From contig WTBX01000072.1 in the NCBI GenBank assembly GCA_013138855.1, positions 1 to 29,190 on the forward strand: a DNA stretch of 29,190 nucleotides, in the 5' to 3' direction. The position numbers and the translations under genes were made by a program. Below, one piece after another: positions 1,574 to 20,110 of the stretch. Source of the stretch: Methylococcaceae bacterium (GTDB lineage: Bacteria > Pseudomonadota > Gammaproteobacteria > Methylococcales > Methylomonadaceae). The stretch's first letter is position 1; every line of letters starts with the position of its first letter. The notes beneath the pieces are model-generated. The model did not search any database, was not told where the DNA came from, and saw only the letters and a program-made list of their open reading frames with translations.

Positions 1574-1651
1574 TTTAAAAGACTGGCGGCAAGATGAAGG
1601 GCGAAGCCCTTTAGCTTGCTGCCAGTCCCCACGCTGATATTAATGTACTTA

Positions 1652-1820
1652 GGAATGCGATTTTAATAACTTACGAAACTATATAAGTCAACTTAGTAAA
1701 ACTTATAAACCATGAAGGGCATGAAGAACATGAAGTTTTAAAGATTTCATCTTCATGTTCTTCATGCCCTTCATGGTGAAAATATATTTTAAGTTTCGGA
1801 TATTATTTAATCTTCATTCC
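1652..1820. mobile_element. MITE family I (GGAATG...CATTCC) with TTA direct repeats, nested in LR copy 1
   Basis: TTA at 1649-1651 and 1821-1823 flank ends GGAATG and CATTCC. A homologous copy lies at 10400-10557. Confidence 0.75.
1709..1777. repeat. Family B palindrome: perfect 27-bp inverted repeat with 15-nt spacer
   Basis: ACCATGAAGGGCATGAAGAACATGAAG (1709-1735) and its exact reverse complement at 1751-1777. Confidence 0.9.
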
Positions 1821-1902
1821 TTAGTGGGGACTGGCAGCTACCTAAAAGACTGCGTCTTTCAGGTAGCCGCCAGTCTTACGAGATACAGTATATTGATAAC
1901 TC

Positions 1903-1927
1903 GGAGTGAAAAAACAAGTTTTTTCAC
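1903..1927. repeat. GGAG-tagged REP-like palindrome (family F)
   Basis: GGAGTGAAAAAACAAGTTTTTTCAC, identical to 23623-23647. It lies 2 bp from the TPR gene stop. Confidence 0.8.
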
Positions 1928-1929
1928 TT

Positions 1930-2553
1930 TTATTCTCTACGAGATAATAATTTATTTTTTTGTTGCTTGTTTGCAAAATTAGCTATCATCCATGACCGCT
2001 GCTCACGCATTACATTGATTTTCCAACCTTTTTTGATGAAAAAATCAAAATCAGCGACAACTTCCGCCTCAAAAGTCGCTTGGTCAGAAATTAAAAGCAA
2101 AGCTCTTTTATAATACTTGCGTGCGGTTTTTGTATGACCGCGTAGCATGGCAACATGCCCTAAATTAAGTGTCCAAGCAGAATTAAATTTATCAAGATTA
2201 TAAGCTTTTCGACAATAAACTTCGGCTTTGTCAAACTCTCCTTGTTTAATCAAAATCCAACCTAACATACCGTAAGCATTAACAAATAAATGATTTAATT
2301 GCGTGGCTTTTAGATAATCGGCTTTGGCTTTTTTATAGTGTTGCTGATGGTAATAAAGCGTTGCTCTACTGAAATAAGCATCTTCATCGTTGCGGTTTAA
2401 ATTAATTTTTTGTGTTAAAGATTTTATGAAAGCTGCGGTGATTTGTTTCTGAGTAAGCGGGGCTGGTATTTTCTTATCCGTAGACGCACAAGAAACTAAA
2501 AATAATAAAACGAATGACAACAAAAATGCATGATGAAATTTAAAAAATAGCAT
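1930..2553 (-). CDS. Tetratricopeptide-repeat lipoprotein
   Basis: TPR-like helices (AYFSRATLYY..A.ADY.KA..LN, AYGMLGWILI..G.F..A). Lipobox LVSC. The ATG at 2553 has GAGAGG 7 nt upstream, so it is preferred over the TTG at 2568. Confidence 0.8.
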   Translation of the reverse strand: MLFFKFHHAFLLSFVLLFLVSCASTDKKIPAPLTQKQITAAFIKSLTQKINLNRNDEDAYFSRATLYYHQQHYKKAKADYLKATQLNHLFVNAYGMLGWILIKQGEFDKAEVYCRKAYNLDKFNSAWTLNLGHVAMLRGHTKTARKYYKRALLLISDQATFEAEVVADFDFFIKKGWKINVMREQRSWMIANFANKQQKNKLLSRRE

Positions 2554-2653
2554 TTTGATTCCTCTCAAACATTAAATTATAAATAGGTAAAATATTCAAA
2601 TATTAACAAGCAGTTATAACATACAAATTTTAAAGTGACACAGAGTTTTTAGT

Positions 2654-2803
2654 TTCTATGGCAACTCAATCATTAGCTCCACAGATGACTGCGTGTAAGG
2701 TTATAAAAAATATATCTTGAAGCTGATGCTTCTTTTGTCGATTAACTCGATAGTCTTTAATGCTTGAAAAGTGATGAATAATTGAGGCTGTTGGCGTTGT
2801 CAT
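2654..2803 (-). pseudogene. ISAs1-family transposase N-terminal remnant
   Basis: Minus frame MTTPTASIIHHFSSIKDYRVNRQKKHQLQDIFFITLHAVICGAND*VAIE matches the ISAs1 (DDE_Tnp_1_assoc) N-terminal pattern HF..I.DPR....K.H.L.DI....LCAVICGA..W..IE. The conserved Trp is now TGA (2666-2668) and the rest of the gene is missing. Confidence 0.85.
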
Positions 2804-2893
2804 TATTTAACGGTAACATAATGATAGCCATATCTTAATTTTTATTATATTTTTAAAACTTTAAGTCCGATTGCCTTAGTGGTCAATTGGTTT

Positions 2894-17526: not shown

Positions 17527-18972
17527 ATGCCAAACGAAAACCCCATATACGATGTTATTGTTATAGGTGCAGGCCCCGCAGGCTATGTCGCCGCTATTAG
17601 AGCAGCACAACTGGGTTTAAAAGTCGCCTGTATAGACAACTGGAAAAATCAGAAAAACCAGCATAGCTTAGGCGGGACTTATATCAATGCAGGCAGCATC
17701 CCTTCAATGGCATTACTGGAATCCTCCAAAATTTATCATTTGTTAAAACATGATGTCGCTCAACATGGCATAGAAACAGGCGAGGTTTCATTAGACCTTA
17801 AACAAATGATTGCGCGTAAAAACCAAGTAGTTCGCACTTTAAGCGAGCAGATTAGAGACAGTTTTAATCATCATAAAATCGATTGCATCTATGGACGCGG
17901 TTGTTTATTAAATGCGACACAAGTTGACGTTGTTCCATTAGATAAAGCTAAACCGTACACGCTGGAAGCTAAAAATATTATTTTAGCCACAGGCTCTAAA
18001 CCTGTAGGTATGCCTTGTGCGGAAATTGATGATGAGTTTATTATCGACTCCAATACCACGCTGGACATGGATACCGTTCCTAAACGACTAGGGATTATCG
18101 GTGCAGGTATTATAGGGCTAGAGCTTGCAGGAATTTGGAATCGTTTAGGTTCTGAGGTGATTTTACTTGATGCACAAGAAAGTTTTTTAACCACGCCCGA
18201 TTTTCAAATCTCACGCGAAGCTTACAAAATATACACCAAGCAAGGTTTAGATTTACGCTTAGGGGCGAGAGTCATTTCTGCAAAAAAAGCCAACAAAAAA
18301 GTTATTGTTGAATATCAAGACCAAGAAGGCACCCATACTTTAAGGCTGGATAAACTCATTGTTGCCACAGGTAGGCGACCGAATACCGAACAACTTGCCG
18401 CAGCCGAAGCCAATTTACTTTTAAACGAAAGTGGTTTTGTTCATGTTGATGAAAACTGCTGCACCAATCTTCCCGCTGTTTATGCCATTGGTGATTTAAC
18501 CTTATTAGGGCCTATGCTGGCACATAAAGGCTTAGAAGAAGGGGTTTTTGTTGCCGAACAAATAGCCAACCAACACAATCCGATTAATTATGATGTCATT
18601 CCTAGCGTTATTTACACCGAGCCAGAAATCGCATGGGTAGGGCAAACAGAGCAAGCGTTAAAAGCAATGGGGGAAAACTACAAAGTTGGAATTTTTCCAT
18701 TAAGTGCGACAGGAAGAGGACAAGCCATTAACAAAACAGATGGCATGGTCAAAATTATCACGCAAGCAGAAAGTGATGTGATTTTAGGCGTGCATATCAT
18801 CGGCACGAATGCTTCCGAATTGATTGCAGAAGCGGTACTCGCAATGGAGTTTTCCGCCAGTAGTGAAGATTTAGCGCGAACTATTCATGCACACCCCAGT
18901 ATCTCAGAAGCCTTGCAGGGCGCAGCATTAAGCCTTGATAACCGTTCTATCCATATCACAACATTACAATAG
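17527..18972 (+). CDS. lpdA: Dihydrolipoamide dehydrogenase-like flavoprotein lacking the redox-active disulfide
   Basis: GAGPAGY FAD motif, GAGIIGLE NAD motif, ATGRRPNT, GPMLAHK and HAHPSISE. The CxxxxC motif reads TYINAGSIPSM. Confidence 0.9.
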   Translation: MPNENPIYDVIVIGAGPAGYVAAIRAAQLGLKVACIDNWKNQKNQHSLGGTYINAGSIPSMALLESSKIYHLLKHDVAQHGIETGEVSLDLKQMIARKNQVVRTLSEQIRDSFNHHKIDCIYGRGCLLNATQVDVVPLDKAKPYTLEAKNIILATGSKPVGMPCAEIDDEFIIDSNTTLDMDTVPKRLGIIGAGIIGLELAGIWNRLGSEVILLDAQESFLTTPDFQISREAYKIYTKQGLDLRLGARVISAKKANKKVIVEYQDQEGTHTLRLDKLIVATGRRPNTEQLAAAEANLLLNESGFVHVDENCCTNLPAVYAIGDLTLLGPMLAHKGLEEGVFVAEQIANQHNPINYDVIPSVIYTEPEIAWVGQTEQALKAMGENYKVGIFPLSATGRGQAINKTDGMVKIITQAESDVILGVHIIGTNASELIAEAVLAMEFSASSEDLARTIHAHPSISEALQGAALSLDNRSIHITTLQ

Positions 18973-19020
18973 TTCTGTGTTTTCTATTTCCAATCAGCCT
19001 CTAAGTATTATGGAACTTCT

Positions 19021-19204
19021 GTAAGTAAGAAGACATAATTATCCTAACATTTATCTAAACCGTTAAAACGGTTGAGTTTGTGCTTTTAACATAGCCCACG
19101 GCTTAAGCCGTGGGCTATGTTATGTAGGTAGAAATAACCGTTTTAACGGTTTCTTGCTTATCTTCTGCAAGATAGCAAAATGTAGGATACTTTTGACCAC
19201 TTAC
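19021..19204. mobile_element. Multi-hairpin element (family C), stand-alone copy
   Basis: Perfect 36-bp palindrome TAACATAGCCCACGGCTTAAGCCGTGGGCTATGTTA (19087-19122), flanked by AACCGTTAAAACGGTT and AACCGTTTTAACGGTT hairpins and by ATCCTAACATTT/AAATGTAGGAT ends. A second copy lies at about 19901-20054. Confidence 0.85.
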
Positions 19205-19254
19205 TCTACAAGAGTTGATAAACCGAAAAGTCTTGAGAAAAATACAAGGAGTCC

Positions 19255-19800
19255 ATGAAAGATAAAAAACACTATCATTACACTGCATTATTCTGTGAAG
19301 AAAATATATGGCATCTTGCTAAAACACTGGAGAATGAAGGTTTTAGCATGGAAAATATGACCGTGTTATTACTTAGTAATCCTTTGCAACAGATCGTTGT
19401 TTTAAATCAATCTAGCTGTCCTGAGGGAGAAGCTGTCATTTGGGATTATCATGTCATTTTGCAGTTAGAAAAAAATAATCAGCCGTGGATTTATGATTTT
19501 GATTCTCGATTAGATTTTCCCATTAGCAAAAAGTCCTATTTTTGCGCCAGTTTTCCTAAGCCAGATGCTTTGCATAAGCCTTATCAAATGTTTATTCGTT
19601 ATATTCCTGCAAACAATTATTTACAGCGTTTTAGTTCGGATAGAAGTCATATGAAAGGCATTATTAGTGCTGATAAATTTCCTAGTTATCCACCGATTTT
19701 GGCAAAAAGGATAGCTGAGCGAATCACGCTCACAGAATATTTCGATATATCTCGTTGCTTAAGTGATGGGAGTTGGGTTGAGCGGTATTTAGATAACTGA
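19255..19800 (+). CDS. Protein N-terminal glutamine amidohydrolase (NTAQ1/WDYHV1)-like
   Basis: FCEENIWHL, IWDYHVIL, IYDFDSRL.FP and F.SDRSHM; Cys14/His66/Asp81 triad positions present; RBS AGGAG. Confidence 0.85.
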   Translation: MKDKKHYHYTALFCEENIWHLAKTLENEGFSMENMTVLLLSNPLQQIVVLNQSSCPEGEAVIWDYHVILQLEKNNQPWIYDFDSRLDFPISKKSYFCASFPKPDALHKPYQMFIRYIPANNYLQRFSSDRSHMKGIISADKFPSYPPILAKRIAERITLTEYFDISRCLSDGSWVERYLDN

Positions 19801-19807
19801 TGTTACG
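19795..19807. repeat. Family G motif supplying the stop codon of the NTAQ1-like gene
   Basis: AACTGATGTTACG; its TGA (19798-19800) ends the ORF. Confidence 0.65.
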
Positions 19808-19833
19808 AAAAAAATGCCAATCTGTAGAATTAA

Positions 19834-20110
19834 AAGACTGGCGGTAAACTGAAGGGCGAAGCCCTTTGGTTTGCTGCCAGTCCCCACGCTTATATTGTCC
19901 ATAATTATTCTAACATTTCTATAAACCGTTAAAACGGTTGATATTGTGCTTTTCACATAGCCCACGGCTTAAGCCGTGGGCTATGTTTATTAATTGAGAA
20001 TAACCGTTTCAACGGTTTTTAGCTAAAATGTTGGGATGCTTTTGAGCGTTTACTTAGTGGGGACTGGCAGCTACCCAAAAGACTGCGTCTTTCAGGTAGC
20101 CGCCAGCCTT
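19834..20110. mobile_element. Composite hairpin-doublet element (family LR), copy 3, carrying element C instead of MITE I
   Basis: L hairpin 19834-19887 and R hairpin 20057-20110 as in copies 1 and 2. The interior matches 19035-19204, including the identical 32-bp palindrome at 19955-19986. Confidence 0.85.

Follow-up and report, generated by a model that had tools for sequence, protein, structure and literature searches.

The 29,190-nucleotide contig WTBX01000072.1 of a Methylococcaceae bacterium (assembly GCA_013138855.1), analysed here over its whole length and hereafter called the window, contains three copies of a hairpin doublet, which we term LR after its left (L) and right (R) members, and in each copy another small element lies between the two hairpins. 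This arrangement raises the question of what LR is, how it moves, and why its short spacer receives foreign cargo. Our analysis indicates that LR is probably the structured core of a non-autonomous DDE-type miniature inverted-repeat transposable element (MITE) of about 190 bp that is mobilised in trans, with the spacer acting as a landing site that has been hit repeatedly. The window was examined against its own assembly (3.02 Mb in 440 contigs, 38% GC, 84% complete, only contigs of at least 2.5 kb), the contigs of which are given C-numbers below, the window itself being C31.

LR is a fixed-order hairpin doublet with about 60 copies

Both hairpins are 54 nt long, and the three window copies, described in a first-pass annotation as sharing the same L and R, do so at the positions collected in Table 1, with mutual identities of 88-92%. 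When L and R were used as short BLAST queries, 123 sites were located in the assembly, and these resolved into 48 L-R pairs, in all of which L lies upstream of R on one strand; matches of L across the genome reached E=1e-26. The spacer is empty in 41 pairs, where it is AT-rich and 8-32 nt long (mode 19-23 nt), and filled in the other seven, where it extends to 119-415 nt. A further 24 L or R hairpins are solo, many of them contig-end sites or single-hairpin deletion forms. Within otherwise intact shells, R alone is retained on C59, C249, C398, C34, C212 and C27, and L alone on C87 and C370, forms that fit deletion between directly repeated arms. Overall, this marine, methane-oxidiser-like genome contains about 60 copies of the LR element.

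LR was detected in none of the 40 relatives searched, seven of which belong to the same genus, and an LR-specific pattern returned no match in the GTDB species representatives or in the JGI metagenome contigs. The first-pass annotation had proposed that L and R recur as a pair with empty and alternative-cargo forms, and had named rare pairing, the lack of such forms, or fixation at orthologous sites in distant species as outcomes that would speak against it. None of these was seen, because pairs are common, empty forms exist and LR is missing from the relatives searched.

A possible glimpse of LR variation within the source population comes from C53:1-300 and C54:1-300, which have a common left flank and LR at the same position (162) and diverge after R, one continuing into a full tail and right repeat and the other into unrelated sequence. 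This difference may reflect polymorphism between strains, or the metagenome-assembled genome (MAG) may have captured a rearrangement. The only public run containing the sequence is a marine sediment metagenome, and a search of the contigs of this one run for empty and filled alleles yielded joints that belonged to other genomic LR copies and were not alleles of the window sites.

A shell of terminal inverted repeats encloses the doublet

Examination of the flanks reveals that LR is the inner part of a larger unit. On the left, a 16-19-bp repeat (TTTTCGACCTGTACGATTAA) directly adjoins L; to the right of R come a conserved tail of about 60 nt and, after it, an inverted copy of TTTTCGACCTGTACGATTAA. 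A complete element of 188-192 bp therefore reads left inverted repeat, L, AT-rich spacer of about 20 nt, R, 60-nt tail, right inverted repeat. Outer repeats stand at both ends in about 17 of the 40 flank-checked elements, and the left end is kept in most. Comparison of the 8-nt flanks outside 27 repeat pairs gave 144 of 216 matching positions at the best offset, as against 37-99 at other offsets, and the target duplication is perfect in C13 (AAAACTTG), C19, C23 (AAATCTTT) and C63. The duplications of the LR shell are thus 8 bp long and AT-rich.

These observations both support and enlarge the earlier proposal that LR is a non-autonomous mobile unit: the unit is mobile and non-autonomous, but it is larger than LR, being a MITE with terminal inverted repeats and an 8-bp duplication of which LR is the core. 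The LR element is a new MITE family whose core resembles a REPIN, that is, a doublet built from repetitive extragenic palindromic (REP) units that forms hairpins and is moved by REP-associated tyrosine transposases (RAYTs) (Bertels and Rainey 2011, PMC3116915).

The same outer repeat also bounds other cores. Among 117 credible outer-repeat ends in the genome, 54 belong to LR elements (30 adjoin an L or R hairpin and 24 the LR tail), 17 adjoin a D-type REP hairpin, 8 an E-type hairpin, 11 another module and 27 other sequence. Conversely, LR' is a second subfamily of LR, in which the spacer is 10-12 nt long and the stems carry two compensatory changes (two compensatory pair changes between L and L'); it is enclosed by a different shell with GTAACTAC...CTATTT inverted repeats and a 7-8-bp duplication, which elsewhere carries D-type hairpins. 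The window provides one such case at 12761-12806, where a GTAACTA...GGCTAT inverted-repeat end directly adjoins a D-type hairpin; since this same shell carries LR' on C204, C207 and C48, one shell has two different hairpin cores.

LR elements are, in turn, found inside G-, S- and B-type elements. In at least nine copies the left outer repeat and LR together are enclosed by a CTAGTACCA...TGGTACTAG element, and several copies lie inside G-type elements or in the AT-rich centre of B-type palindromes. The Russian-doll system of small elements riding on one another, as the first-pass annotation had put it, is therefore real as nesting but does not form a fixed hierarchy of shell and cargo; the nesting is reciprocal, because LR copies also lie within other elements. 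An ISAs1 origin of the G-type ends was considered and set aside, as the ISAs1 family model matched nowhere in the genome at E<=0.01.

Related palindromes were noted alongside LR. The GACTGGC motif recurs in a short-palindrome doublet, in which two 13-nt near-palindromes (GGACTGGCAGTCC and its complement) stand about 25 nt apart in a shell of their own (GGCTCTTC...CCGTGAAA); the 13-nt palindrome occurs 79 times in the genome, with doublets, for example, at C153:5529-5580 and C4:3624-3675. At C382:686-760 a chimera has a short-palindrome doublet unit in place of L beside a normal R. A perfect 53-nt hairpin resembling R (GGACTGGCATCTACCC...GGGTAGATGCCAGTCC) lies at C330:4985-5040, in its own outer inverted repeat (TGGCTACCAACTTAA...TTAAGTTGGTAGCCA).

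A candidate partner transposase in other gammaproteobacterial genomes

The genomes of other species contain an 18-mer of the outer repeat on more than 100 contigs, most of them from Methylococcaceae, Competibacteraceae and unclassified gammaproteobacterial MAGs, while none of the seven same-genus genomes carries the outer repeat, and LR is absent from the 108 foreign loci bearing the repeat that were fetched. In MAG CAVQSJ01 the repeat bounds the same 1,708-bp element at three loci, with an 8-bp duplication (AAAATTTT) and a 460-aa open reading frame (ORF). This ORF has no Pfam hit and matches the ISKra4 transposase model NF033572 with E=8e-16 and 58 bits, and homologues or contig-end fragments of the protein were found in all five repeat-bearing MAGs tested. 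The search for a DDE transposase gene, recommended in the first-pass annotation for a gene flanked by L and R, accordingly gave a divided outcome: an insertion sequence (IS) with the same outer ends exists in other gammaproteobacterial MAGs, but its transposase was not found in the assembly at hand.

On this basis, a transposase that recognises the outer repeats and cuts AT-rich DNA with an 8-bp stagger would move the LR element in trans. The enzyme to match would be this 460-aa protein, which is a distant ISKra4 relative only; it is associated with identical ends and the same duplication length in the other MAGs.

Two further possibilities were examined and rejected. At C25:1036-1260, 130 bp from a solo R, there is a C-terminal remnant, 76 aa long, of another ISKra4-like transposase; as the partner transposase it looks unrelated, with no outer repeat nearby. 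An origin of LR as the deletion remnant of an IS interior was likewise not supported, because LR aligned locally to the IS ends with a non-significant score of 36 (shuffled sequences: mean 27, maximum 44).

The spacer receives several element families

Insertion into the LR spacer has happened at least 11 times and involves four or five element families, with five copies of MITE I, three G-type elements, one element C, one element K and one MITE of the outer-repeat type, next to the 41 empty pairs. The most frequent of these, MITE I, has inverted GGAATG...CATTCC ends (50-60 BLAST hits for its left and right parts, at about 50 loci) and is represented by 26 full-length copies, 19 of which are flanked by a 3-bp TTA or TAA duplication. 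It occupies the spacer in window copies 1 and 2, where the inverted ends and the TTA duplication confirm the initial assignment, and on C376, C294 and C38; all five insertions used the TTA beside R, which was duplicated, and have one common orientation. The three G-type inserts, in contrast to this single position, entered at three different positions, two of them with 7-8-bp duplications (TTAATAT on C1; GTATTTAA on C117 together with C74). Element C, the cargo of window copy 3, shows 86% identity over 125 nt to the solo copy in the window and has matches on about 30 contigs; its identification as both cargo and solo element was correct, the nested copy lacking its left end. Element K, on C149, shares its end sequences with C, and the cargo on C331 is another MITE with the same type of outer repeat.

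MITE I was initially thought to carry a nested element of its own, the CATGAAG palindrome B. While B does lie inside I, it was found in all 26 full-length I copies at one fixed position, 17-78 nt long and varying in 9-nt steps, and it is also present in the I copies of G001, a near-complete sister genome. No evidence of B as a separate insert was found among the 26 full I copies or the G001 copies, and, judged by its fixed position and constant presence, B is an integral, length-variable core of I.

The density of these events supports the description of the spacer as an insertion hotspot, and the clean TTA duplications of I and the 7-8-bp duplications of G show it to be a real landing site. 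By rough arithmetic, about 200 elements of these families distributed over 426 kb of non-ORF DNA should have placed approximately 0.6 insertions in the 1.2 kb of total LR spacer DNA, compared with at least seven independent events observed. The spacer would be a preferred and harmless landing pad, being AT-rich, lying between GC-rich stems and interrupting nothing that the cell needs. Further transposition, together with recombination among the four near-identical arms, may then give rise to composites, deletion forms and shell swaps.

Repeated hits and the spread of a composite

For MITE I, the fixed position leaves two histories to be weighed, namely repeated entry into the spacer and spread of a composite as a unit, the latter having been proposed from the colinearity of copies 1 and 2. 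Four different I sub-lineages are represented by the four complete I copies within LR, each 90-100% identical to I copies elsewhere, and monophyly of LR-borne I is rejected (approximately unbiased (AU) test, p=1.8e-7); when the I tree is rooted with the G001 copies, its well-supported branches require three changes or more. This is further strengthened by copy 2, the I cargo of which is 20% diverged from those of C376 and C294, while the shells differ by only 7-8% (p=0.007-0.015). The I sites outside LR are without LR remnants, and several adjoin other hairpins. Because G001 has I but neither LR nor the outer repeat, I is, by this comparison, older than LR in this lineage. With the four LR-borne copies falling in four sub-lineages, repeated hits at a hotspot, accompanied by some unit spread, are favoured over simple spread of a composite with reasonable though not high confidence.

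Several observations nevertheless count against the overall interpretation of LR as the core of a trans-mobilised element with a repeatedly hit spacer. All three window copies are without the right shell end, copy 1 is without the left end as well, and the right repeat is missing in more than half of all LR copies. The 460-aa ORF scores far below the curated NF033572 cut-off (58 vs 205 bits), and the partner transposase was not found by protein or family model in the window's own assembly, where its absence does not imply absence from the organism; since the enzyme was not found and the assembly is fragmented, 84% complete and limited to contigs of at least 2.5 kb, mobilisation of LR in this genome is something that we infer. 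LR has also changed shells at least once, as the shell of LR' is another one and has inverted repeats of its own. As regards the cargo, monophyly of the I-bearing shells is not rejected (AU test, p=0.46), in contrast to that of the cargo itself; C376 and C38 have in common both a 1-nt spacer deletion and an I sub-lineage, for which reason at least this one composite seems to have been copied whole; and a single old insertion of I followed by spread could still account for the pattern.

These last points would be expected if I had entered one LR spacer once, the shell transposase had then copied the composite, and LR-borne I had seeded the other sub-lineages, so that the spacer would be no special target for I. 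The common TTA and orientation of all five composites, and the similar divergence of shell and cargo in three of six pairs, agree with such a history. We regard it as doubtful, as it has to accommodate the rejected monophyly and minimum of three changes in the I tree, the excess cargo divergence of copy 2, and the existence of the I family, including its B core, in a sister species without LR; the other cargo (three G at different positions, C, K and the outer-repeat-type MITE) would in any case still need repeated independent hits. Unit spread therefore seems to hold for the C376/C38 pair, which looks co-duplicated, but is not shown by the colinearity of window copies 1 and 2, the cargos of which come from different sub-lineages.

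Folding of LR and alternative origins of the doublet

L folds better on the + strand (-39.9 kcal/mol) than on the - strand (-30.8 kcal/mol), and R better on the - strand (-37.8 kcal/mol) than on the + strand (-28.4 kcal/mol), a difference due to conserved G.T pairs. Because of this opposite preference, R is, by its predicted fold, an inverted and diverged version of an L-like imperfect hairpin. All four arms carry GACTGGC or GCCAGTC, and the alternative pairings that the first-pass annotation had anticipated are indeed available: the single-strand fold preferred by an empty LR is, for both strands, a four-way junction (-45.3 kcal/mol with z about -12, and -43.8 kcal/mol with z about -10), with a 12-bp outer stem, a 15-bp central stem that has the spacer as its loop, and two apical hairpins. 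The Watson-Crick share is 92-96% of positions in the long-range stems and 88% in the local arm pairings; arm variation is sparse, and covariation does not choose between local hairpins and the junction because the arms are too conserved.

Together, L and R can form a four-way junction whose central stem presents the spacer as a loop. It is conceivable, although we consider it unlikely, that this junction is a structure-specific landing pad, whose extruded AT-rich loop actively attracts transposases of several unrelated MITE families (I at one TTA and in one orientation), and that the GACTGGC of LR, LR' and the short-palindrome doublets marks a REP-like superfamily that is moved between shells by another enzyme.

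A related but still less probable possibility is that LR is a REPIN-like doublet with its own mobility, in which a Y1/RAYT-type or other enzyme recognises the hairpins or GACTGGC and has inserted LR itself into different MITE shells. LR shares with REPINs the inverted doublet of imperfect palindromes with a short spacer (PMC3116915); L and R each gain about 9 kcal/mol on opposite strands; LR stands with identical boundaries in two unrelated shells, both of which also carry D-type hairpins; the abundant 13-nt palindrome doublet (79 copies) has the same GACTGGC motif; and the genome encodes four Y1_Tnp genes. None of these four genes in the assembly, however, is flanked by L or R, the arrangement for which the first-pass annotation had suggested a search, and the sole Y1 gene with flanking repeats, for a 190-aa RAYT-like transposase at C330:3880-4780, has D-type hairpins (GGA.C.GCGACT...AGTCGCG) on both sides, for which reason the D family looks like a classical REP/RAYT system. 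Every LR copy seen retained shell remnants, and neither a GTAG nor a CGTC tag is conserved at the ends of L or R in the copy alignment. In addition, the strand asymmetry would be trivial if R arose as an inverted copy of L, and arm covariation is too sparse to choose between the folds.

The hairpins could alternatively be kept by the host as a functional structure, such as a bidirectional 3'-end stabiliser, a terminator or a site for a DNA-binding protein, with mobility being secondary. LR pairs lie between convergent genes in 11 of 32 placed copies, compared with 14-17% expected, and are depleted between divergent genes (3 of 32); the hairpins show compensatory changes, and each direction of transcription would meet the better-folding hairpin first. 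Purifying selection on any insertion would, however, be expected to produce the same 3'-end bias, the stems are not followed by a T-run, Rfam has no match at gathering score in the whole window, and about one-fifth of copies are disrupted by cargo or reduced to one hairpin. None of the relatives searched has LR, which excludes an old host function, and we consider this explanation very improbable. LR as the core of a trans-mobilised MITE thus accounts best for the data.

Features of the window

The three LR copies of the window and the elements next to them are listed in Table 1.

Table 1. LR copies and associated elements in the window (positions in WTBX01000072.1).
Feature	Position	Strand	Remark
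B-type CATGAAG-repeat arm directly adjoining copy 1; outer left terminal repeat missing	1547..1575	+	C155, C434 and C257 have the same arm, then an intact outer repeat, then L
L hairpin, copy 1	1579..1632	+	Better fold on + strand
Left part of AT-rich spacer, ending in TTA target 1649-1651	1633..1651
MITE I, 169 bp, GGAATG...CATTCC ends; variable CATGAAG palindrome core (B) 1709-1777	1652..1820	+	Arms 99% identical to non-LR copy on C439
Second TTA, target-site duplication of I	1821..1823
R hairpin, copy 1	1824..1877	+	Better fold on - strand
G-type element end (CTGATGTTACGCA) just outside copy 2	10284..10296	+	Same arrangement on C137, C208 and C36
Remnant of outer left terminal inverted repeat, 2-nt deletion	10313..10326	+
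L hairpin, copy 2	10327..10380	+
MITE I, 158 bp, different I sub-lineage; TTA at 10397-10399 and 10558-10560; B core ~10457-10514	10400..10557	+
R hairpin, copy 2; no shell tail or right repeat after it	10561..10614	+
Solo element C	19021..19204	+
Degenerate G-type end upstream of copy 3	19797..19809	+
Degenerate remnant of outer left terminal inverted repeat, 12/17 matches	19817..19833	+
L hairpin, copy 3	19834..19887	+
Element C as cargo; left end truncated with part of spacer; right end adjoins spacer TTA 20054-20056	19897..20053	+
R hairpin, copy 3	20057..20110	+
Debris right of copy 3: element K fragment 20118-20161 and right-end fragment of MITE I ~20160-20197	20118..20197

A further G-type end was noted at 2894-2906, and D-type hairpins lie at about 447-480, 12779-12806, 12875-12908, 22433-22460 and 22530-22563. 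The genes of the window encode 2-oxoglutarate dehydrogenase and further ordinary proteobacterial enzymes, including an FBPase with 80-83% identity to the FBPases of two Methylococcaceae MAGs. Lpd identity between the window and the same-genus genomes is 73-81%, which marks these as distant species, and in the comparison for orthologous empty sites none of the seven same-genus genomes has the window's neighbouring hydrolase gene. The orthologue of the lpdA-like gene (17527-18972) was matched in G001, at C2:2249737-2251175, in three pieces, one of which has a stop codon, and may be a pseudogene.

Relation to known repeat systems

A close parallel is found in MITEs derived from DDE insertion sequences (ISKra4 sensu lato), with which LR shares its short non-coding form, ends identical to those of a full-length IS, a fixed 8-bp duplication and tens of dispersed intergenic copies. 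LR differs in that its partner is only a distant ISKra4 relative (58 vs 205 bits) not found in this assembly, and in that its interior, a pair of long hairpins, is no obvious deletion remnant of the IS. The use of a MITE as a target also has a precedent, since QMITE2 of Coxiella burnetii is a hotspot for IS1111 insertion (PMC5896051); in both systems MITE copies are repeatedly entered by another element at a defined place, and interrupted copies decay at their outer ends. The Coxiella invader, however, is a full IS of the IS110 family, whereas the invaders of LR are several non-autonomous MITE families with varied duplication lengths, and the LR target is a loop between two hairpins.

With REPINs (PMC3116915), LR has in common that two imperfect palindromes form an inverted doublet around a short spacer of lower conservation, and that doublets are in great excess over singlets, the latter looking like decay products. 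The LR hairpins are longer, however (54 nt vs about 20-25 nt), they come without a conserved tag or a cognate RAYT, and around the doublet lie inverted repeats of the DDE type, with target duplications. Elements derived from IS200/IS605, of the palindrome-associated transposable element (PATE) type, have both subterminal hairpins on the same strand and neither inverted repeats nor duplication, whereas in LR the hairpin L is stable on the + strand and R on the - strand, and both features are present. The palindromic units of enterobacteria and the bacterial interspersed mosaic elements (BIMEs) that they compose are targets of IS1397 and ISKpn1 and form host-wide REP arrays bound by IHF and gyrase. 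BIMEs resemble LR as head-to-head imperfect palindromes of defined orientation that are specific insertion targets of other mobile elements, but LR is lineage-specific and lies inside a MITE shell. In Nostoc punctiforme, small dispersed repeats with units of 21-27 nt and nested MITEs were reportedly described by Elhai et al. in 2008; these, too, are very small mobile repeats of a repeat-rich genome that have entered one another as well as MITEs, but they belong to a different phylum and have other sequences and much smaller units.

LR is accordingly not a new kind of system; it exemplifies, with unusual clarity, a type of bacterial repeat that is already known. Its genome offers a compact view of tiny non-coding elements building on one another, in which several hairpin cores share one inverted-repeat shell, at least two shells share one hairpin core, and the loop between the hairpins absorbs repeated insertions. 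Nests of this type explain the break-up of the MAG into 440 contigs and can be mistaken for small RNA genes or regulatory sites. They also provide a route by which hairpin doublets become mobilisable cargo, and they make the target choice of small transposons testable on a 20-nt site.

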